Positions 5,507 through 58,219 of a stretch of DNA of 64,000 nt are shown one piece after another. Position numbers and translations under genes: made by a program. The notes under the pieces were generated by a model. The model was not told where the DNA came from. It did no database searches and saw nothing but the letters and a program-made list of their open reading frames with translations. Source of the stretch: a phage; the NCBI GenBank assembly GCA_022979955.1, contig GCA_022979955.1_3642.1; one strand, written 5' to 3'. The number at the start of each line of letters is the position of its first letter. Within the stretch, counting starts at the first letter, position 1.

Positions 5507-5693
5507 TTTTGAGAAGATTGTAAAGCGATCTCATGATTCCGAAGAGTTGCCGGAACGCCGCCAGCGCAACAATAAATTGAATAAGCCAAAAAGATTTGGG
5601 AAGATCTGGCGGAATCATTATGATCGTAAATTGCCGGGCCTACTTTTGGAACGTGAACGACAGGCGGAACGATACCGCCACAAAGGCAAATAA
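5496..5693 (+). CDS. hypothetical basic protein
   Basis: ORF 5472..5693 trimmed to ATG with AAGGGGGG SD; K/R-rich. Confidence 0.4.
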   Translation: MKINFEKIVKRSHDSEELPERRQRNNKLNKPKRFGKIWRNHYDRKLPGLLLERERQAERYRHKGK

Positions 5694-5699
5694 CAACCA

Positions 5700-5728
5700 A
5701 CGCCCCGCCATTGTGCGGGGCTTTTTAT
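5700..5728 (+). terminator. rho-independent terminator
   Basis: CGCCCCGCC-loop-GCGGGGC hairpin followed by TTTTTATTT. Confidence 0.55.
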
Positions 5729-5851
5729 TTCTATCATACGAATAGCGCCCCTGGTTGGCCCTGTAAGCGCCAAAAAGGCCCCCACCTATGCAATCGCCCC
5801 CTTTAACCTGAAAACATCGCCCAGGGCCGTTTTATGGCGTTAAAAATATCA

Positions 5852-5879
5852 TTGACATCGTCAACAGGTTAGCTATACT
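5852..5879 (+). promoter_or_regulatory. sigma70-like promoter TTGACA-N16-TATACT
   Basis: hexamers read directly; upstream A/T tract. Confidence 0.5.
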
Positions 5880-5911
5880 AACCACATCAAAGAGAGGAAG
5901 GAGTAAACGCC

Positions 5912-6172
5912 ATGCGTAAATTAAAAAATTTTGATAAAGTTGATGTTATCCTGAATAATTTTTACTACTGCAACAACAAGGCTATTTGGTGGCGTGATAG
6001 TTCCACCGATAAAGTCAAGGCGCGCTTTCTCCAAGGGCACTGGCAAGGCCGCCCAGTGATTAAAATCATGGGGCAATTGGTAGCGTTTAAAAATTGCCGC
6101 CGTGTTGATGACGTTGAGGAGATTTTAAACATTTTGCGCCACAATAATTTAAAAAATAGTGTTGACAAGTAA
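5912..6172 (+). CDS. hypothetical protein
   Basis: ORF track; GAGGAAGGAG SD. Confidence 0.5.
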   Translation: MRKLKNFDKVDVILNNFYYCNNKAIWWRDSSTDKVKARFLQGHWQGRPVIKIMGQLVAFKNCRRVDDVEEILNILRHNNLKNSVDK

Positions 6173-6189
6173 ATCTCAATAAGTATACT
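6162..6189 (+). promoter_or_regulatory. sigma70-like promoter TTGACA-N16-TATACT
   Basis: followed by leader hairpin GGCGGGAAAACTTCCCGCC then SD. Confidence 0.5.
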
Positions 6190-6246
6190 TAAACACACAG
6201 GCGGGAAAACTTCCCGCCACTAACAAAGAAAATAGGAGAAAATATC

Positions 6247-6870
6247 ATGACCACCGTTAACATTACCGCAGGTTACAATTTATCTTTCGACGTGCTGACC
6301 GACGAACAAAAAGAAAAAGCTATTGAAATGGTCCGCGAAAGAGAAGAACACAGTGGGGATAACTTTTTTGCAGAAAGTGTAATTGAATACTATAAAGAAT
6401 ATGTTTTTCCAGAGTACGGGCTTGAAGATACAAAAGTACATTGGTCAGGCTTTTGGTGCCAGGGTGACGGCGCGTCAATCAGTGCGGAAAACGTGGATTT
6501 AGAAAAATTCTTGCGTAAAGTCAAGTCTCTGACTAAATTCCGCTCAATTCGTCGCTTGTTCGGCACAATGCACGATGGCGAACTATCCGCAAGTGTTGAG
6601 CGTGATCCATATAGCCGCTATAGTCACGAAAACACTGTAAGCGGGTACATCGATACTACATGGCTAGACCTGACCGCCAAACAAGAAAATAAAGTGGAAG
6701 ATCTGGAAGAGCTGATCACCGAGACGGTACGGGAGCTATCCCGCAAGGTTTACGTAGACCTGGAGGAGGCCTATCTAGAACAGTTCACTACCGAAAACCT
6801 GATCGGCCTTATTGAGGCCAATGATTGGCGGTTTGATGTAGATGAATATGGAGAGATGAGTTTTTCATAA
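6247..6870 (+). CDS. hypothetical acidic protein (207 aa)
   Basis: ORF track; AATAGGAGAAAATATC-ATG. Confidence 0.6.
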   Translation: MTTVNITAGYNLSFDVLTDEQKEKAIEMVREREEHSGDNFFAESVIEYYKEYVFPEYGLEDTKVHWSGFWCQGDGASISAENVDLEKFLRKVKSLTKFRSIRRLFGTMHDGELSASVERDPYSRYSHENTVSGYIDTTWLDLTAKQENKVEDLEELITETVRELSRKVYVDLEEAYLEQFTTENLIGLIEANDWRFDVDEYGEMSFS

Positions 6871-8503: not shown

Positions 8504-8546
8504 TTAAACCCTGTTAAAATAATCAGTGCAAAAAGGAGTAATGATC

Positions 8547-8846
8547 ATGTTTATCCAGGCTAATAATCTTTATTTCTTTGATGGTCAGATCGTAGACGGC
8601 GTGGAGGTGGAAATCACCGGGTGCCCTGGCGGTCAGGTTATGACTTTTCGGAATAATGCCTTTGATGATTCTCATATCGTTATGAGAATGGAAGTTAGTA
8701 AGCTGGATGACAAGAAAACACTTATCGACTATTCCGTCAAAGATCATCCAGACTACCACATGATCTATGGTGATTTGTGCATTGTTGACCGTGACAAGGT
8801 GAACGGCATTGTTATAGCCATTGTGAACGATGTTTTCTCTGAATAA
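8547..8846 (+). CDS. hypothetical protein
   Basis: ORF 8526..8846 (GTG) trimmed to ATG at 8547 with AAAGGAG SD. Confidence 0.5.
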   Translation: MFIQANNLYFFDGQIVDGVEVEITGCPGGQVMTFRNNAFDDSHIVMRMEVSKLDDKKTLIDYSVKDHPDYHMIYGDLCIVDRDKVNGIVIAIVNDVFSE

Positions 8847-9069
8847 TTCCGGCAAATGATGCAAAATAAGGCCCCTAGCAGGGCCTGCAGCGATATAATC
8901 ACATAAAGGCTATGCGGTTGCATGTCCTTTATTATTTTAGCGTTACAGCGGCCCCAAGGCGCTTAAAAAAATTTTTAAAGAAGTACTTGCATCAAGCCCT
9001 ACAATATGGATAATAGGACGTGTCAGGGGGAGGCCCCAATCATTAACCGGATAGATAGGAGTTAAAACC

Positions 9070-9354
9070 ATGGCTATTGTTACCGCTGGCGATGTAGTAG
9101 AAATGGAAGCAAAATACTTAAAAGCGGGTATGCATATCCTACGCAACGATCTTGAACTGGTCCTGACAATGGTTGACTATAACCCAGGGCAAGATTATCC
9201 AAGTGTTGACTACTTTTTTGAGTATGTTGATGAAGAGTTGAAAGAGGATGAGGCCTATTGCGGTGAGTTCTGCAACTTCTTTTGTCCTGATGAGGTTGTA
9301 AAGGTTATCTATCAACCTGGCGTAGCTTTCCCGCTGCACGCTATCAATAAATAA
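9070..9354 (+). CDS. hypothetical acidic protein
   Basis: ORF track; ATAGGAG SD. Confidence 0.5.
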   Translation: MAIVTAGDVVEMEAKYLKAGMHILRNDLELVLTMVDYNPGQDYPSVDYFFEYVDEELKEDEAYCGEFCNFFCPDEVVKVIYQPGVAFPLHAINK

Positions 9355-9358
9355 ACCT

Positions 9359-9382
9359 GGCGGGGCCGAAAAGGCCCCCGCC
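9359..9382 (+). terminator. terminator-like GC hairpin (GGCGGGGCC-GAAAA-GGCCCCCGCC)
   Basis: perfect stem read directly; weak U tract. Confidence 0.4.
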
Positions 9383-9416
9383 TGAAATTATGAAAAATAA
9401 AAAGAGGCAAACTATC

Positions 9417-9650
9417 ATGATGGAACAAATTAAACGCGCTGAGGCTATTAATGGCAATGTGATCTATTTTGTCAGCAAAAACGAAAAAGGCGTACCCTAT
9501 GCGGCGGTAATAGTACAGCCTGACGGCGATTATTGGTGCACTGTGTACGGCGCTTATTCTTTTGGGCGTCCAGTGCATGATAAAATTTTGAAAGTAGCGA
9601 ACCCTACCGGGAAAAATATTACAGCAGAAAAATTTTTTGAAAATAGTTGA
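9417..9650 (+). CDS. hypothetical protein
   Basis: ORF 9390..9650 trimmed to ATG at 9417 with AAGAGG SD. Confidence 0.45.
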   Translation: MMEQIKRAEAINGNVIYFVSKNEKGVPYAAVIVQPDGDYWCTVYGAYSFGRPVHDKILKVANPTGKNITAEKFFENS

Positions 9651-48662: not shown

Positions 48663-49946
48663 TTATTCCAGCACCTCCCAAGTGTCTGGGTTAACATTTC
48701 GGACGCAGATACCGACAGGGAATTGGTAGTTGTTGTCTTCTGTCCTTGCTTGATATTTGAAGGTGACAAACTTGCCGATCATTTCCTGCATTCTGTCATA
48801 GCTACGCTCCTCGTGCGTACCTTTCATCTTCATTTTAACAACAATACCTTCCTTGTCAACACAGATAAGAACACCTTCATCATTCTTATCTTTCTCAACG
48901 TCAATAACTTTCACCTCTGCGTCGTTGAACTTTTTCCATTTCAATGCTTCAGATGTTCGCTGACCGTACTCATATTTACCACAGAAGTTACGCATAATGG
49001 TACCTTCATATCCTTCGGACATGAATATACCAACAGATTCTTCGCAATGATCAACTGTGTACGCAAGCTCTGCGTCAACAACCTTGATATGGTCAAGCAT
49101 CAGAGTGGTAACGGTATCCTCTGCATCCATAAGATCCTTGCAGCGTCCAGACTCTGTTTCGGGATCCCACCACACCTTGTCGCTAGGAATATCAAAAATG
49201 TGATACTCCAGATCGTAGCTACAGTACCCACCGTAACGCAAATCATCACGAACAGGCTCAACATCGACAGGAATATCTACCTTGTTGAAGTTTTTGTATG
49301 TTGATAAGCCGGACTTAATTGCGGCATGACGGCGTTTTTTATCTGCCTCATAGTCTTTATCGATCTCGGCCTGAATCTCTTCCTGTGTGCGCCACCGTTT
49401 AGCAAGAGACACTATTTTCTGCAAAGGAAGACCATGAATGTATAGTTCCCCATCAAGTTGTTTAATCCCAGTGGTAGAATGGAAAGAACGAAGTTGCTCT
49501 AAAAGCTTTCCTTGAATAGGGTAGGACTTATTACCACGGGAAATAAATTTAGGCTCACCATTTTGGAAAACAACAAGCAGACGAAGGCCATCTAACTTAC
49601 GCAAGATCCAGCAAGGTAGTTTAAGTGCCTTGCCACGCTTCAGGTAGTCATGCACCAGCATGGGTAAAAGATCAACACCCTGCTCGCAATCTTCCATGTT
49701 TTCAACATACCCAAGACGGACTTGTTTTTCCCACTTGCTGATAGCCTCAAGCTCGGCCTGTTGCTCAGCTGTAGTCTCATTGGCACGACCTACGTTCTTA
49801 GGTGTGCATACCGTCTCTTTGTACTGCAATTTACCGTCAAGCTTGCCAAACTCTACGATAACCTTTTCGCCATCAGTGAATACTTTCCACTGTTGGTAGC
49901 TGCCATCTTTGTTCAGTGCGTACAGTGTTGTTTTGATTTGATGCAT
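48663..49946 (-). CDS. ATP-dependent DNA ligase
   Basis: motif I KLDGLR, motif III GELYIHG, motif IV EGTIMRN, motif V KWKKF. Confidence 0.65.
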   Translation of the reverse strand: MHQIKTTLYALNKDGSYQQWKVFTDGEKVIVEFGKLDGKLQYKETVCTPKNVGRANETTAEQQAELEAISKWEKQVRLGYVENMEDCEQGVDLLPMLVHDYLKRGKALKLPCWILRKLDGLRLLVVFQNGEPKFISRGNKSYPIQGKLLEQLRSFHSTTGIKQLDGELYIHGLPLQKIVSLAKRWRTQEEIQAEIDKDYEADKKRRHAAIKSGLSTYKNFNKVDIPVDVEPVRDDLRYGGYCSYDLEYHIFDIPSDKVWWDPETESGRCKDLMDAEDTVTTLMLDHIKVVDAELAYTVDHCEESVGIFMSEGYEGTIMRNFCGKYEYGQRTSEALKWKKFNDAEVKVIDVEKDKNDEGVLICVDKEGIVVKMKMKGTHEERSYDRMQEMIGKFVTFKYQARTEDNNYQFPVGICVRNVNPDTWEVLE

Positions 49947-50540: not shown

Positions 50541-50573
50541 AACAAGTAAAGCCGGGTAATCCCGGCCATGTTG

Positions 50574-51287
50574 TTAAATATACTCTGCTACATCCTTGAA
50601 GCTCGAAGGCTTCATGATCTTACCTTTACTGTCAAGGAATATGATAACTTTATTACCGTTGTAGAATTCTTCCTTAGCAACAAAACCTTCATATCGACCA
50701 TCAAAGCGTCGCTCAAGATCTTTAATCTCCAACTCTATGAGTTGTTCAGCAGGCATATCTGCACTGGCACCGTGTGAATACCGTAGATGGTTGACCCGTG
50801 CAAACTTGCTGTCATTCGATTTGAGAACCTTACGCATCATCCCGCACACATCGCCGCGAAGCTGGAACAGCAAAGCTGTTGACAACTCCGCTAAACGGTA
50901 AGCTGACGCTCTTTGCTTGGATGTGTTTTTCGCAGCGATCAGTGTGTCATAGAACTCACCGATCTTGAACTTAAGACCTCGTGGATTATCAAACAGGTTT
51001 GACCACTTTTCGTGATTGTCATTAACAAGATAAGCTGCATAACTTGTGACAACGTGAAGATCGCAGGCCTCCTTTAGCAGGTGATCTCCACCATCACCTT
51101 TCTCCAGCTCTTCCAAAACTTCATTGAACTCTTCCTCAATGAAGCTAAGCTGTAATTCGAATGGTGTGTATGATTTTTTCACTTTAGCTGCCACACGGTT
51201 CCAGTTTTCCACCCAGTTGGCAGACCAAAGGTAGTTTTCAGGTTGGGATAGTTTTTCCAGGTTGTCAATTAATTTAGTATTCAGCAT
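50574..51287 (-). CDS. MazG-like all-alpha NTP pyrophosphohydrolase domain protein
   Basis: SFIEEEFNEVLEELEKGD...KEACDL resembles EExxE/ExxD metal-binding helices of MazG/HisE. Confidence 0.4.
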   Translation of the reverse strand: MLNTKLIDNLEKLSQPENYLWSANWVENWNRVAAKVKKSYTPFELQLSFIEEEFNEVLEELEKGDGGDHLLKEACDLHVVTSYAAYLVNDNHEKWSNLFDNPRGLKFKIGEFYDTLIAAKNTSKQRASAYRLAELSTALLFQLRGDVCGMMRKVLKSNDSKFARVNHLRYSHGASADMPAEQLIELEIKDLERRFDGRYEGFVAKEEFYNGNKVIIFLDSKGKIMKPSSFKDVAEYI

Positions 51288-51300
51288 TAAAGGTCTCCTT

Positions 51301-52062
51301 TTAAAGTTCCATAAAGTTTTCTACAGTCTCAATGAATGTTTTATCAGAGAAGGCATCAACCGCACCGTTAAACCAAACTGGGATGCCACGATCCTCATAC
51401 TGGTAAATATCACTACGTGAAATGCCATTCTCCTCTAGATGCTGTGAGTCGTATTTATTAACGATCAGTAGTTTGGTTCCCTTATTGCAGGCAGGGAATA
51501 GCTCCCAGTTAAAATTGATAACTGTGTTGGAGCACCCTACAAGGATAACCATATCATTGCTCGTAAGAGAAGTCAACAGGTCATACATGTCTGTATACTT
51601 CGGAGCTACTTCTCCGAAGAACACCACATTAGGCTTAACCCAGGTATACTTTCCTGCGTCTACCTCAGAGTATCCAATGTCCTTAATGACGTCACTTCCT
51701 TCATCGTCCTCATAGACTATTTCTGGCAAATACCCGTGGACATGTAAAATATCTTCATGTTTTACACCAGCACGCTCCAGCAAATCATCTACATTGGTGG
51801 TAAGGTTGATCACACGACCAGACCAGCGGGAATACCACTCAGCGATCCGAAGATGTGCAAGGTTAGGCTCAACACTGCCTAAAGCTACACGACGTGCATT
51901 GTAAAAGTCATGCACCTTATAGTAGTTCTTGGCAAAGGTGTGGATGTTGCACACCTCATCGATGCTGAAATTCTCCCACATTGCAGTGCTACCAGATCGG
52001 AAAGTGGGAATACCAGATTCAGCGCTCAAACCAGCACCGGAGATAATAATCAGTCGTCGCAT
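51301..52062 (-). CDS. Sir2-family (sirtuin-like) NAD-dependent protein, apparently lacking Zn-ribbon
   Basis: GAGLSAESGIPTFR, TTNVDDLLERAG, VHGYL, VVFFGE motifs; no CxxC pairs between them. Confidence 0.7.
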   Translation of the reverse strand: MRRLIIISGAGLSAESGIPTFRSGSTAMWENFSIDEVCNIHTFAKNYYKVHDFYNARRVALGSVEPNLAHLRIAEWYSRWSGRVINLTTNVDDLLERAGVKHEDILHVHGYLPEIVYEDDEGSDVIKDIGYSEVDAGKYTWVKPNVVFFGEVAPKYTDMYDLLTSLTSNDMVILVGCSNTVINFNWELFPACNKGTKLLIVNKYDSQHLEENGISRSDIYQYEDRGIPVWFNGAVDAFSDKTFIETVENFMEL

Positions 52063-52070
52063 AAGTGTCC

Positions 52071-52421
52071 TCAGTAGATGTTTTGTTTAATCTCTATTCC
52101 AAACTTTTTAAACGAGTCAGCTGCAAGCATGAATTTACGAGCCGCTGATGGGTTAGAAGTATGCACGAAAATCTTCACGTTGTCAACTACAGGAGGCTTA
52201 CCAAATACAAATTTTTCCTCCAACATAGATAGGCAATCGTACCCTTCGAATACCTCTCCAAGGTCGTTGTCCATATGCCACTCAGAAACGCGTCTGTAGA
52301 GCTTTCTATTATCGTTAATAAAATCTATAAACTCGGAGGAATTCTTTAGCCAAACAGCGTCTTGGAGCCCGTACTTTGACGGATCTCTCAAGTCATCCAG
52401 CCACACAATCAACTTCTTCAT
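52071..52421 (-). CDS. hypothetical protein (possible CheY-like receiver fold)
   Basis: ORF 52071..52451 trimmed to MKKLIV start at 52421 abutting RNA ligase stop; DD...D...T pattern IVWLDD / HMDNDLGE / VHTSNP. Confidence 0.4.
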   Translation of the reverse strand: MKKLIVWLDDLRDPSKYGLQDAVWLKNSSEFIDFINDNRKLYRRVSEWHMDNDLGEVFEGYDCLSMLEEKFVFGKPPVVDNVKIFVHTSNPSAARKFMLAADSFKKFGIEIKQNIY

Positions 52422-53353
52422 TGCATATAGTCCTCGTTGTGAAAATAGCAATCAAGTATCTCACGGCGTTCCTGCTCCAGGAGGCAGTTCCACACATCTT
52501 CTGTGTAATTGCTACGAATGAAGTTTACCATGCCGTAAAACTCTTCGTCAATACGTTTAAAGATATCATCATCCCAAATCTTCCAAGCTTTACCCCTCAT
52601 TACGGCCTTCCGTGCCAAATAGTATGGAGACTTGATCTTCAGCTGCAGGTCATAAGGGTAGTAAGGCTTACGGATCATATACCCTTCGCCCCTTGTTTCT
52701 GCAGCTAATTCTTTTGCATAGCTGAACGGGATTTCACGCACAGTGTGAGGACGTTTTGCACCAAGGTATTTGGCAATCCCATCTAAAGCTGCTTCTGGTA
52801 GCATTATTCCAGAATCATTATATCTGCAACCTATCAAATATGCGCCATGGTCTTCTTGAACAATATGCGGATCTGAAGGGTGACAAATTTCAAACATGAA
52901 TGTCATGTTTTCATTGCCCATAACCTTCTTGATAAGATCTAAATTACCACATTGCTCTTGGATGGTTTCCTTTGCAAGGTTACAATATGGAGAATCAAGA
53001 GACCCGGTTGTTGAGAACAATAGGTCACCTTTATGAGATGATACCACACCAAGGAATCCGTTCTTTTTCTCTACCGCAGTCACAAGCTTATTGTCAGGCA
53101 GGTTGGTGGAGTTTTCTCCCAAGTTAAACACTTTTGTGAAGGGCCATGCCACAACATTTCCTTCATTACCTACAACAATGCCTCGGCACTCCAGTAAACG
53201 AGGGGACAAATGCCATAAATTGTTGTAAAATACTTTTCTAGCATATTTATAGATCTTTAACCCGAGATCTGGGTAATACCTACTGGTTACAAGACCTTTG
53301 TCAACTAGGTCGTCTGCATTAAAATACTTCATCATACGTTCCTCATTTGTCAT
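52418..53353 (-). CDS. Rnl1-family RNA ligase
   Basis: LLECRGIVVGNEG...TKVFNLGEN...TAVEKKNGFLGVV tracks T4 Rnl1 segment ALECRGIMF...KFFNLNEN...TKEDGSLVS (recalled), incl. motif I lysine. Confidence 0.65.
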   Translation of the reverse strand: MTNEERMMKYFNADDLVDKGLVTSRYYPDLGLKIYKYARKVFYNNLWHLSPRLLECRGIVVGNEGNVVAWPFTKVFNLGENSTNLPDNKLVTAVEKKNGFLGVVSSHKGDLLFSTTGSLDSPYCNLAKETIQEQCGNLDLIKKVMGNENMTFMFEICHPSDPHIVQEDHGAYLIGCRYNDSGIMLPEAALDGIAKYLGAKRPHTVREIPFSYAKELAAETRGEGYMIRKPYYPYDLQLKIKSPYYLARKAVMRGKAWKIWDDDIFKRIDEEFYGMVNFIRSNYTEDVWNCLLEQERREILDCYFHNEDYMQ

Positions 53354-53396
53354 TTTGTCAGTCTATCCTGCCACACAAATAACCTGGTGTCAACAC

Positions 53397-53425
53397 TTGA
53401 AATTAACAAAACAGTTAGGTATACT
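53397..53425 (+). promoter_or_regulatory. sigma70-like promoter TTGAAA-N17-TATACT
   Basis: divergent intergenic region; hexamers read directly. Confidence 0.45.
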
Positions 53426-53453
53426 ATCGTTGAAATTAAAACGGAGGGTCACT

Positions 53454-53864
53454 ATGTCTAAAATGCTATATATCGTGCGTGGTCTGCCAGGGTCTGGCAA
53501 ATCAACACTGGCAAATGCGCTATCTTTAGAGGGTCTGTATCCACATTTTGAGAACGACATGTTCTGGTATGACGATGACGGCAATTACAACTGGGATGCA
53601 AGTAAAGTAACACTCGCAGCGAAATGGTGCAAAGATAACGTAGAAGATATGATGCGTATGGGATACGACCGTATCGTGGTAAGTAATACGTTTACAAAAG
53701 AAAAACATGTGCAGGAATATGTTGACATGGCAATCAGTCATGGGTATAGTTATACCGTGATCGTGGTTGAAAACCGCCACGGTAATAAAAGCATTCATGA
53801 TGTTCCAGACAAGGTTGTGGATCGTATGGAACGCCAGCTTAAAAACTGCATTAAACTTAAATGA
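53454..53864 (+). CDS. polynucleotide kinase-like P-loop kinase
   Basis: ORF 53298..53864 trimmed to ATG with GGAGGG SD; P-loop GLPGSGKST as in T4 Pnk kinase domain. Confidence 0.55.
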   Translation: MSKMLYIVRGLPGSGKSTLANALSLEGLYPHFENDMFWYDDDGNYNWDASKVTLAAKWCKDNVEDMMRMGYDRIVVSNTFTKEKHVQEYVDMAISHGYSYTVIVVENRHGNKSIHDVPDKVVDRMERQLKNCIKLK

Positions 53865-53871
53865 GGAATGT

Positions 53872-54426
53872 ATGAAATACTTTGTAACAAGCGACACACA
53901 CTTTCTCCACCAGCGGGTCATGGAGTTCGATTCATGTCAAAAACACAGATCTCAGTATGATCACAATCTTGACAGTATGAATGCGGGAATCATCACCAAG
54001 TGGAACTCTGTTGTGTCACCTGCAGACACTGTGTTTCACTTGGGAGATATTGCGTGCACTAATGATAAGAATATCAACAAATTGCTCCCAGATGTTCTAA
54101 ATATGTTGAACGGACATATTATTCTTGTTCGTGGTAACCATGACACAAGGACGACTGTCAGAATTATGAAAGAGTTCGGTCATGAGGTTGTAGATTATTA
54201 CGAGCTTCGCCACAACAAGAATTTGATCTGTATGAGCCATTACCAGTTTGCAAAGTGGAACAGAAAGCCTCACGGATCAGTCCAACTGTTCGGTCATGCT
54301 CACGGAACCACACAGCAGTTGTTTGGCAGGCAGTTTGATGTCGGTTGGGATGTGTGGGGGAGACTCTTACCATTAGAAGAGGCATACCGTATTGCAATGA
54401 GTCTTGCTATTGACAGCGGGGAGTAA
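53872..54426 (+). CDS. metallophosphoesterase (calcineurin-like phosphatase)
   Basis: ORF 53767..54426 trimmed to ATG with GAGGA SD; VTSDTHF, HLGDI, VRGNHD motifs. Confidence 0.6.
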   Translation: MKYFVTSDTHFLHQRVMEFDSCQKHRSQYDHNLDSMNAGIITKWNSVVSPADTVFHLGDIACTNDKNINKLLPDVLNMLNGHIILVRGNHDTRTTVRIMKEFGHEVVDYYELRHNKNLICMSHYQFAKWNRKPHGSVQLFGHAHGTTQQLFGRQFDVGWDVWGRLLPLEEAYRIAMSLAIDSGE

Positions 54427-54473: not shown

Positions 54474-54824
54474 ATGAAAGATGGGGATAAGCTGCTATAT
54501 CTTAAAGTCCCCCTTGAAATACTGTCTATGTCAAAAGTTTTGAATGACACAACTGGGGAGGTTGTTGTTCTTGACTTATATGACAAGATCGTATACTGCT
54601 ACCTGCACAACTGGTATAAGCTTGGAGGAAATTCACGCTTCACACCCAGCACAAGGAAAATTGCAGCAGATGTTGGGATAAAGAAAACAAAAGCAGCAGC
54701 GTGCGTTAAAACTTTAGAATGTGCAGGAGTGGTTGAAATATCCACACAAGGGAGAGGTAAAAGATGTACATTTTCCAAAGTTTTGCCACCAGAAGAGGTT
54801 ATTCGAATGTCAACAACTGGTTAG
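54474..54824 (+). CDS. winged-helix/HTH DNA-binding protein (candidate origin-binding or regulatory protein)
   Basis: TRKIAADVGIKKTKAAACVKTLECAGVV HTH-like segment; GAATCAGGAGA SD; iterons immediately downstream. Confidence 0.45.
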   Translation: MKDGDKLLYLKVPLEILSMSKVLNDTTGEVVVLDLYDKIVYCYLHNWYKLGGNSRFTPSTRKIAADVGIKKTKAAACVKTLECAGVVEISTQGRGKRCTFSKVLPPEEVIRMSTTG

Positions 54825-57361: not shown

Positions 57362-57436
57362 GCCCTGTTAGCTTAGTGGATAAAGCAGCGGCCTTCTAAG
57401 CCGTTGACACTGGTTCGAGTCCAGTACGGGGTGCCA
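57362..57436 (+). tRNA. tRNA-Arg (anticodon UCU)
   Basis: hand-folded cloverleaf: acceptor GCCCTGT/ACGGGGT, anticodon loop CTTCTAA, T-loop TTCGAGT, 3' CCA encoded. Confidence 0.7.
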
Positions 57437-57440
57437 AATT

Positions 57441-57527
57441 GGGGAGTTATCCCGTAGAGGTAGCGGTGTAGACTGTAAATCTATTGTCATTGCGACTCGG
57501 GTGGTTCGACTCCACCACTCCCCACCA
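57441..57527 (+). tRNA. tRNA-Tyr (anticodon GUA), type II long variable arm
   Basis: acceptor GGGGAGT/ACTCCCC, anticodon loop CTGTAAA, T-arm GGTGG-TTCGACT-CCACC, CCA encoded. Confidence 0.7.
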
Positions 57528-57641
57528 AATTTATATTTTTAGATGCGTAAATAATACAGATAATGGCATTGATATTTATCGTCGTTTATACTAGTCACTA
57601 ACTGCTCGAAAATCAGTGTCATTATCAGTATAATTTATAAA

Positions 57642-57732
57642 GGAGGGTAGGGAGCAATGGTGCTCAAGCGGTCTTGAAAACCGTCCCATTGAGGATGACT
57701 CGATGATGGTTCGATTCCATTACTCTCCGCCA
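57642..57732 (+). tRNA. tRNA-Ser (anticodon UGA), type II
   Basis: acceptor GGAGGGT/ACTCTCC, anticodon loop CTTGAAA, long variable arm, T-loop TTCGATT, CCA encoded. Confidence 0.65.
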
Positions 57733-57830
57733 CATTGTTGACCTTGTAATTAAGCGAAAGCCGGAAGCAGAACCGGATTATCAAATGTTACAGTCGTCAT
57801 CGCCGACTAGCAACATGGTCAACATACTGA

Positions 57831-57927
57831 GCTAGGTAAGCCCTTTGGCAAGGGCGAGGATTTTTAATCCTGAAAATAGACGAGGTAGTCGTTGAATACA
57901 TAGGTGGTTCGATTCCACCGCCTAGCA
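57831..57927 (+). tRNA. atypical tRNA-like gene (anticodon loop TTTTTAA, nominal Lys-UUU) with about 30-nt extra arm
   Basis: acceptor GCTAGGT/GCCTAGC, D-arm GCCC-TTTGGCAA-GGGC, T-arm GGTGG-TTCGATT-CCACC; 4-bp anticodon stem; no encoded CCA. Confidence 0.35.
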
Positions 57928-57933
57928 CCTTTT

Positions 57934-58009
57934 GCTGATGTAGCACAATTGGCAGTGCAATTGATTTGTAATCAATAGGTTGCAGGTTCAAGTCCTGCCA
58001 TCAGCACCA
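57934..58009 (+). tRNA. tRNA-Thr (anticodon UGU)
   Basis: acceptor GCTGATG/CATCAGC, anticodon stem ATTGA/TCAAT with loop TTTGTAA, T-arm GCAGG-TTCAAGT-CCTGC, CCA encoded. Confidence 0.75.
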
Positions 58010-58010
58010 T

Positions 58011-58085
58011 GGCCCTGTAGCTGGAAGGTTCAAGCAAGCGACTCATAATCGCCAGATGGTGGTTCAATTCCACCCAGGGCCACCA
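58011..58085 (+). tRNA. tRNA with CAU anticodon (Met, or Ile if lysidine-modified)
   Basis: acceptor GGCCCTG/CAGGGCC, anticodon loop CTCATAA, T-arm GGTGG-TTCAATT-CCACC, CCA encoded. Confidence 0.65.
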
Positions 58086-58096
58086 AATTATAAATA

Positions 58097-58163
58097 CTCC
58101 GCGTAGCTCAGCTTGGTAGAGCGCCTGATTTGGGATCAGGAGGTCGAGTGTTCGAATCACTCC
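58097..58163 (+). tRNA. tRNA-Pro (anticodon UGG)
   Basis: acceptor CTCCGCG/CGTGGAG, anticodon stem CCTGA/TCAGG with loop TTTGGGA, T-loop TTCGAAT, CCA encoded. Confidence 0.7.
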
Positions 58164-58219
58164 GTGGAGACCACCTTTAGTTATACTTTAAACATATACA
58201 AACGAAAGGAACCTTTAAA

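Follow-up and report, generated by a model that had tools for sequence, protein, structure and literature searches.

The 64,000-nucleotide stretch of phage DNA analysed here (contig GCA_022979955.1_3642.1; hereafter the window) comes from an rV5-like coliphage (Vequintavirus), and the 5.5 kb around the locus of interest align over their full length, at 97.5-98.6% identity, with more than 100 Vequintavirus coliphage genomes. Positions 52418-54426 hold three intact genes, of which the minus-strand one encodes an ATP-dependent, Rnl1-type RNA ligase and the two plus-strand ones a P-loop kinase with a metallophosphoesterase (MPE; a binuclear enzyme of the calcineurin-like superfamily) directly 3' of it. 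GenBank records of the relatives label the genes of this region 'RNA ligase', 'polynucleotide kinase', 'phosphoesterase' and 'Sir2-like protein' (Bas51 is an annotated example). In addition, Iyer, Burroughs, Anantharaman and Aravind described the phage V5 neighbourhood in 2022 as predicted RNA repair, proposing the clean-up of RNA 2',3'-cyclic phosphate ends with a sirtuin that acts like KptA (PMC9503650). Since the genes are named in GenBank and the neighbourhood has been described, an RNA repair kit at this locus is already known, and the remaining gap is one of experiment, not of gene recognition.

The ligase gene was called mechanically as an open reading frame of 311 codons (52418-53353, minus strand; PF09511, phrog_562). 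Its true start is probably Met7, at 53335, which yields a protein of 305 residues, because a GAGGAA ribosome-binding site precedes this codon, the gene is annotated at 918 nt in relatives, and residues 1-7 of the predicted structure have a predicted local distance difference test (pLDDT) score below 50. The RNA_lig_T4_1 profile (PF09511) scores 55.3 bits against a cut-off of 28.3, with residues 55-245 spanning the whole 227-position profile, and phrog_562 matches at E = 7e-66. The ligase motifs can be assigned as motif I, K96-K-N-G99; motif III, F154-E155; motif IV, E223-G224; and motif V, K239-I-K241. Across a 26-member family alignment K96, G99, E155, E223, G224, K239 and K241 are all invariant, as are three residues further towards the N-terminus, R57, K74 and F76. 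In T4 Rnl1, whose residue numbering we verified on the T4 genome, the latter three correspond to R54, K75 and F77, of which R54 and K75 are essential and touch the ATP gamma-phosphate (PMC6379707). The remaining equivalences are K96 to T4 K99 (motif I, KKNG), G99 to G102, E155 to E159, E223/G224 to E227/G228 and K239/K241 to K240/K242.

Recognition of this relationship at the level of solved structures required a family profile, as a single-sequence phmmer search of the PDB with the ligase returned nothing meaningful. The 26-member profile matched T4 Rnl1 as its sole PDB hit (2c5u, E = 3.3e-14; also 9do4), over T4 residues 49-249. Profile-profile comparison with a six-member alignment of T4-like Rnl1 proteins gave a probability of 98.4% (E = 1e-14) and aligned ligase residues 30-285 with T4 residues 30-302. 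The family appears to be phage-borne and essentially phage-specific, since a scan of 185,579 prokaryotic genomes (one per species) yielded one relative, on a 3.4-kb contig of a metagenome-assembled genome; a metagenome protein search matched 1683 clusters of relatives.

The kinase reading frame called mechanically (53298-53864) opens with TTG and overlaps the ligase. A GGAGGG sequence lies upstream of a start at 53454, and the real gene is 53454-53864 on the plus strand, encoding a stand-alone P-loop protein of 136 residues (MSKMLYIVRGLPGSGKST) that is assigned to AAA_33 (PF13671, 42.4 bits against a cut-off of 27) and to phrog_2071 (3e-58), and also matches phrog_505, 'polynucleotide kinase'. 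Positions invariant in the family alignment comprise the P-loop itself, G10-LPGSGKST (G10-x-x-G13-x-G15-K16-S17), D35, the VSNTFT segment and E106-N-R108-H-G110. D35 aligns with Asp35 of T4 Pnk, which we take to be the catalytic general base, and R108, the putative lid arginine, falls in a segment aligned with the T4 R122-R126 region. As with the ligase, single-sequence phmmer against the PDB gave nothing meaningful. The best full-length PDB matches of the family profile were to the Mucorales RNA 5'-OH kinase, Pnkp1, PSTK, T4 Pnk and the kinase domain of Clostridium thermocellum Pnkp (CthPnkp), and hhalign placed the protein on T4 Pnkp residues 2-141 with 95.4% probability (E = 1.8e-8). In structure comparisons the fold is nearest to T4 Pnk and CthPnkp, closer to polynucleotide and RNA kinases than to deoxynucleoside monophosphate (dNMP), thymidine monophosphate or adenylate kinases, and an identity as a dNMP kinase was rejected. 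On these alignments the product is classified as a polynucleotide 5'-kinase of the T4 Pnk/CthPnkp kinase clade, a family in which stand-alone proteins of about 130 residues make up at least 7989 clusters.

The MPE gene (53872-54426, plus strand) starts 7 nt past the kinase stop, its GAGGAA ribosome-binding site overlapping the kinase stop codon, and encodes a stand-alone binuclear MPE of the aq_1665 clade with 184 residues. Its sequence contains SDTHF, LGD, GNHD, a conserved H123 and GHAHG, so that all five metal-binding motifs can be read (D8-x-H10, G58-D59, G88-N89-H90-D91, H123 and G141-H142-x-H144), and these are invariant in 30 homologues. Both Metallophos_2 (PF12850, 28.5 bits against 27) and Metallophos (PF00149, 27.8 against 21.5) pass their Pfam cut-offs, and phrog_547 matches at E = 5e-51. 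The nearest solved structure is that of aq_1665 (1xm7), reached over the full length at 7e-11 by the single sequence and at 1.1e-27 by the family profile, whose other PDB matches at E up to 0.1 were GpdQ, YfcE, Rv0805, MJ0936 and ApaH. By gene linkage and the precedent of CthPnkp and other MPEs, the protein would be a 2',3'-cyclic phosphodiesterase and 3'-phosphatase that heals the 3' end. CthPnkp, which combines kinase and MPE, heals tRNA ends that T4 Rnl1 can then seal (PMC1920235), and 2',3'-cyclic phosphodiesterase activity is known for MPEs (PMC2190708).

To ask whether these three genes belong together is to ask how consistently they are linked, and here we drew on a scan of viral contigs that yielded 80 loci with ligase relatives (35-89% identity), whose neighbours within 6 kb were identified by tblastn with the window proteins. 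The kinase was found at 71 of the 80 loci and the MPE at 61. Raw counts of this kind are inflated by shared ancestry; after collapsing the ligases at 80% identity into 50 clusters, the kinase and the MPE were each present in 43, and together in 38, nearly always on the ligase strand. By our own estimate, random placement in genomes of 90-150 kb would produce a co-location of about 10%. Gene order varies among the clusters: MPE-ligase-kinase is seen in plain form in 17 and with add-ons in more, kinase-ligase-MPE in 12 and ligase-MPE-kinase in one, while the divergent layout is confined to the window's own lineage (L001). It is this retention through rearrangements that argues for selection on the trio. 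Furthermore, kinase and ligase are fused in a single 421-residue protein encoded at positions 5560-6825 of locus L035 (and likewise in L036, L040-L042, L045 and L049-L054), with no MPE within 6 kb. Because the three genes are co-retained across several gene orders, and because kinase and ligase can be fused, the trio is a conserved functional unit. The same L035 locus carries a second ligase-like reading frame, with an EKLDGSS motif, at 8509-9588. On an unrelated 283-kb metagenomic contig, probably a jumbo phage (L088:4001-5055), homologues of the kinase (46% identity) and of the MPE (28%) overlap stop to start, and no Rnl1-type ligase was detected within 4 kb; the kinase-MPE pair may thus work with other ligases too.

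Taken together, these data lead us to propose, with a probability of roughly 0.7, that this rV5-like coliphage carries a three-enzyme heal-and-seal RNA repair pathway. In such a pathway the MPE would open the 2',3'-cyclic phosphate and remove the phosphate to leave a 3'-OH, the kinase would move a phosphate from a nucleoside triphosphate onto the 5'-OH, and the ligase would adenylylate itself on Lys96, pass the AMP to the 5'-phosphate and seal the break. The mended RNA is most likely tRNA cut by host defences; we infer tRNA as the substrate, the order of the reactions and a counter-defence role against PrrC-type nucleases. This broadly agrees with the initial annotation, which had read the region as a phage tRNA-repair kit on three grounds: a ligase segment shared with T4 Rnl1 (LLECRGIVV, TKVFNLGEN and EKKNGF are indeed present), a P-loop kinase like that of the T4 Pnk domain (GLPGSGKST), and a calcineurin-like phosphoesterase encoded by a separate gene in place of a HAD phosphatase. 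No HAD (DxDxT) phosphatase domain was matched in nine neighbouring proteins scanned with Pfam and PHROG. We regard that interpretation as supported, since every testable element held and the two checks that might have refuted it, on the motif I lysine of the ligase and on a dNMP-kinase identity for the kinase, failed to do so. It is, in addition to not being new, incomplete: the three genes stand, but three further genes on the ligase strand had been missed.

These genes form, together with the ligase at their head, a leftward operon in the order ligase, cREC, Sir2 and MazG-like, all on the minus strand. The cREC (cyclic-phosphate-processing receiver-like) gene (52071-52421; 116 residues; PF20274 at 5.8e-15, phrog_1479; 351 nt in relatives) has an ATG that overlaps the ligase stop codon as ATGA, an overlap that suggests translational coupling of ligase and cREC. 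The Sir2-family protein (51301-52062; 253 residues; PF02146 at 3e-27, phrog_2162 at 9e-110) carries the NAD-binding and catalytic-histidine motifs GAGLSAESGIP, TTNVDD and HVHG, and is predicted by Iyer et al. to strip 2'-phosphate from RNA using NAD+ (PMC9503650). In its translation we read no CxxC pairs between the catalytic histidine and the VVFFGE segment, and the protein seems to be without the usual sirtuin zinc-binding module. The unit's last gene (50574-51287; 237 residues) encodes a MazG-like nucleotide pyrophosphohydrolase that matches phrog_671 at 5e-22 and gave no match in a Pfam scan; a MazG-superfamily protein is also listed for the phage V5 neighbourhood (PMC9503650). NCBIfam gave no informative match for the kinase, cREC or MazG-like proteins. 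Directly 3' of the MazG-like gene, a G+C-rich terminator-like hairpin (50550-50567, minus strand), identified by consensus match only, probably ends the transcription unit. In Vequintaviruses, the cREC, Sir2 and MazG-like proteins would probably add to the pathway, or back it up, with a route via a 2'-phosphate intermediate.

All six genes have counterparts in the Vequintavirus Bas54, for which transposon-insertion data on E. coli K-12 are available in the supplement of the HIDEN-SEQ preprint. Five of them were classed as Non-essential there, namely those for the MazG-like protein (bas54_0206), Sir2 (0207), RNA ligase (0209), kinase (0210) and phosphoesterase (0211), and one, cREC (bas54_0208), as Intermediate; the ligase gene took insertions at 56 of 60 sites. 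In the same work, T4 rnlA did not tolerate insertions in its catalytic domain (HIDEN-SEQ preprint). The Bas54 pattern fits an accessory counter-defence module. For this locus the enzyme identities, the integrity of the active-site motifs, the conserved gene linkage and the dispensability on a laboratory host have been shown.

Several observations weigh against the proposed heal-and-seal pathway or narrow it. TIGR02308, the NCBIfam equivalog for T4 RnlA, scores the ligase at 38.7 bits, far below its cut-off of 242.25. Lys119 of T4 Rnl1, which is invariant in T4-like Rnl1 proteins and was reportedly found to be important by Wang et al. in 2003, corresponds to Thr116 in the phage ligase, and threonine is nearly invariant at this position in the 26-member family; a literature search on the role of Lys119 returned nothing relevant. 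Motif V is followed by about 65 residues, a helical C-terminal module, as compared with about 120 residues in T4 Rnl1. It is the domain appended at the C-terminus that defines each clade of RNA ligases, and that of T4 Rnl1 gives specificity for the tRNA anticodon loop (PMC6379707). Judged by sequence, then, the ligase is 'Rnl1-type' in a broad sense and probably not an orthologue of T4 RnlA, and tRNA specificity is not transferable from T4, because the C-terminal module is short and the score lies under the TIGR02308 cut-off. For the MPE, the depositors of 1xm7 named no function for aq_1665; neither lambda phosphatase nor the CthPnkp phosphatase was among the PDB matches of the family profile at E of 0.1 or below; and relatives also occur without kinase or ligase, for example P0282, which lies beside an HNH gene in a prophage-like bacterial region. 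Furthermore, the presence of cREC and Sir2 hints at chemistry other than the simple T4 route, and literature searches for biochemical or genetic tests of these proteins turned up none.

A more ambitious interpretation, which we offer tentatively and consider somewhat unlikely, combines several of these departures: the ligases of about 305 residues could form a separate, phage-only Rnl1-like clade, set apart by a half-size C-terminal module, threonine in place of T4 Lys119 and two residues just past motif V, K249 and R253, that are invariant in the family; the minimal kinase and the aq_1665-type MPE could together constitute a 'split Pnkp'; and Vequintaviruses could possess a second, NAD+-dependent route through 2'-phosphate. 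If this were true, a single phage could mend RNA ends produced by host ribonucleases of different classes.

The main rival explanation, in our estimation unlikely, is that repair follows a route like that of fungi and plants, as suggested by Iyer et al. (2022), in which the cyclic phosphate is opened by cREC or the MPE to leave a 2'-phosphate and 3'-OH, the kinase phosphorylates the 5' end, the ligase seals, and Sir2 then uses NAD+ to remove the 2'-phosphate left at the junction, as an analogue of Tpt1/KptA, with MazG and/or the MPE clearing the ADP-ribose cyclic phosphate by-product. This 2'-phosphate/Sir2 route has been proposed for phage V5 (PMC9503650), and the organization of ligase, cREC, Sir2 and MazG-like genes as one leftward unit, with its ATGA overlap and terminal hairpin, as well as their co-occurrence in Vequintavirinae-like loci, is in keeping with it. 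Invariant K249 and R253 are also reminiscent of RxxR, the putative 2'-phosphate site of Trl1-LIG (PMC6379707); these two residues, however, are equally invariant in lineages that have no Sir2. Sir2, cREC and MazG lie within 6 kb of the ligase in just 8-9 of the 50 clusters, and some 40 of the 50 ligase lineages keep ligase, kinase and MPE without any of the three at that distance, so that the ligase family as a whole does not depend on removal of 2'-phosphate by Sir2. The activity of cREC is experimentally uncharacterized and an RNA role for the sirtuin only proposed (PMC9503650). Finally, the MPE keeps the histidine of DxH, which in CthPnkp goes along with loss of the entire phosphate, leaving a 2'-OH (PMC1920235), an analogy that spans distant MPE clades. 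The 2'-phosphate route may run in parallel to the three-enzyme pathway in Vequintaviruses.

We give a far lower probability to the idea that kinase and MPE act on the ends of DNA, or of nucleic acids generally, during replication or repair of the phage DNA, in partnership with a nearby ATP-dependent DNA ligase (48663-49946, minus strand). T4 Pnkp does act on DNA ends in vitro as well. The gene for this DNA ligase is 2.5 kb away from that for the RNA ligase here and within 6 kb at 31 of the 80 related loci, a proximity that probably reflects inherited gene order, and the MPE matches PdeM, the endonuclease of a ligase-associated DNA damage response (TIGR04123; E = 2.4e-4), but at 20.6 bits against a cut-off of 150; the linkage that survives rearrangement, and the gene fusion, are with the RNA ligase and not the DNA ligase. 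The least credible option is that the three genes are unrelated neighbours, that is a nucleotide kinase, an MPE that degrades cyclic nucleotides or acts as a protein phosphatase, and a tail-fibre attachment ligase like T4 gp63: many database records carry over the name 'RNA ligase and tail fiber attachment' from T4, AAA_33 is a broad kinase family and MPE relatives have other genomic contexts, yet the trio is retained together through several gene orders, the kinase fold is nearest to polynucleotide kinases, and an essential role of the ligase in virion assembly, including tail-fibre attachment, is unlikely because its Bas54 counterpart is Non-essential and tolerates insertions.

The proposed heal-and-seal pathway would matter beyond this phage. 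Defences that cleave tRNA are increasingly prominent in the conflict between phages and hosts, and RNA repair kits are how phages counter them. The kit is widespread, would assign a role to the aq_1665 clade of MPEs, so far uncharacterised, and comprises compact enzymes that could be useful as reagents.

Ligase and kinase genes are separated by an intergenic spacer of 100 bp. A sigma-70-like promoter, TTGAAA-17-TATACT (53397-53425, plus strand), precedes the kinase-MPE operon, on a pattern match alone at 10 of 12 positions. The promoter scan passed no sigma-70 promoter for the leftward ligase operon; by eye we find a tentative candidate at 53365-53393 (minus strand), in which TTGACA is matched perfectly and a spacer of 17 nt separates it from a weak -10 element, CAGGAT, after TG. 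The spacer also marks the switch of coding strand for the whole window, as almost all long reading frames between about 19.6 and 53.35 kb use the minus strand and almost all further on the plus strand, and GC skew changes sign, with the minimum of cumulative skew, at the same place (53000-53500). Given this switch in strand and skew, the divergent layout of ligase and kinase reflects the genome's main point of divergence and not a private bidirectional promoter; replication might originate here, or the region might hold major divergent early promoters. The MPE gene is immediately followed by one for a small helix-turn-helix (HTH) protein (DUF6945/HTH_36; 54474-54824, plus strand), which PHROG 12838 calls 'replication initiation protein' and BASEL records 'transcriptional regulator', and whose Bas54 counterpart falls in the fitness class 'Intermediate'.

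The initial annotation had described the kit as divergently arranged beside a tRNA cluster. Its divergent layout is correct, but the cluster is near and not adjacent: seven tRNA genes identified with ARAGORN and Rfam (57362-58173, plus strand) lie on the strand of the kinase and MPE genes and outside their operon, beginning 2.9 kb past the MPE stop with about nine small reading frames in between. One of them, a 99-nt tRNA at 57831-57929 (plus strand), is of undetermined type with a 4-base anticodon according to ARAGORN, scores 31 bits in Rfam against a threshold of 29, and folds into a cloverleaf with an extra hairpin (z = -3.8). Its anticodon loop, read by eye as UUUUUAA, would give the anticodon UUU (Lys), and annotated relatives have it as tRNA-Lys. 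tRNA-Lys(UUU) is the target of PrrC, and a structurally deviant phage copy of it near the repair kit is suggestive. Another tRNA, at 58011-58085 (plus strand), has a CAT anticodon and is assigned to Met by ARAGORN; in BASEL relatives it is annotated as a tRNA-Ile that reads ATA, and lysidine modification is thereby implied. For the tRNA-Ser at 57642-57732 the BASEL relative has no annotation.

One close counterpart of this kit is the T4 pair of Pnkp (pseT) and Rnl1 (rnlA), which counters PrrC and with which the kit is expected to share three activities: 5'-kinase, 3' healing and sealing. The ligases have in common the adenylyltransferase domain with its N-terminal sub-module (R, K and F) as well as motifs I, III, IV and V, and the kinases share fold, P-loop and the Asp35 equivalent; in T4, pseT and rnlA are likewise close, at a distance of about 1.4 kb. 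T4 Pnkp, however, fuses its kinase to a HAD/DxDxT phosphatase domain, whereas the window encodes a minimal 136-residue kinase, which covers T4 residues 2-141 only, and a binuclear MPE as a separate gene. T4 Rnl1 has 374 residues, as compared with 305-311 here, where the C-terminal module is about half the size and Lys119 is replaced by threonine. With its metal-dependent MPE for 3' healing the phage kit resembles CthPnkp. In that system kinase, MPE and ligase form one polypeptide, whereas here they are three separate genes; the phage MPE belongs to the aq_1665 clade, from which a profile search does not reach CthPnkp; and a scan of nine neighbouring proteins gave no match to a methyltransferase or to Hen1, the CthPnkp partner. 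Aquifex aeolicus aq_1665 (1xm7), to which the MPE is most closely related among solved structures, is a structural-genomics protein and uninformative on substrate. Compared with the fungal and plant system of Trl1 (with a ligase domain of the Rnl6 clade) and Tpt1, the phage has neither a 2H cyclic phosphodiesterase domain nor Tpt1, and its ligase differs from Trl1 in the C-terminal module. A further match is the type 2 sirtuin-centred neighbourhood, 'prototyped by Escherichia phage V5' (PMC9503650), which corresponds to this very locus in the group of phages concerned here, and all of whose parts are present at 50574-54426: sirtuin, T4-like tRNA ligase, cREC, nucleotide kinase, MazG and calcineurin-like phosphoesterase. 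That description starts from the sirtuin and lists the phosphoesterase as 'occasional'; seen from the ligase, the kinase and the MPE are the rule, and it is Sir2, cREC and MazG that are restricted to particular lineages.

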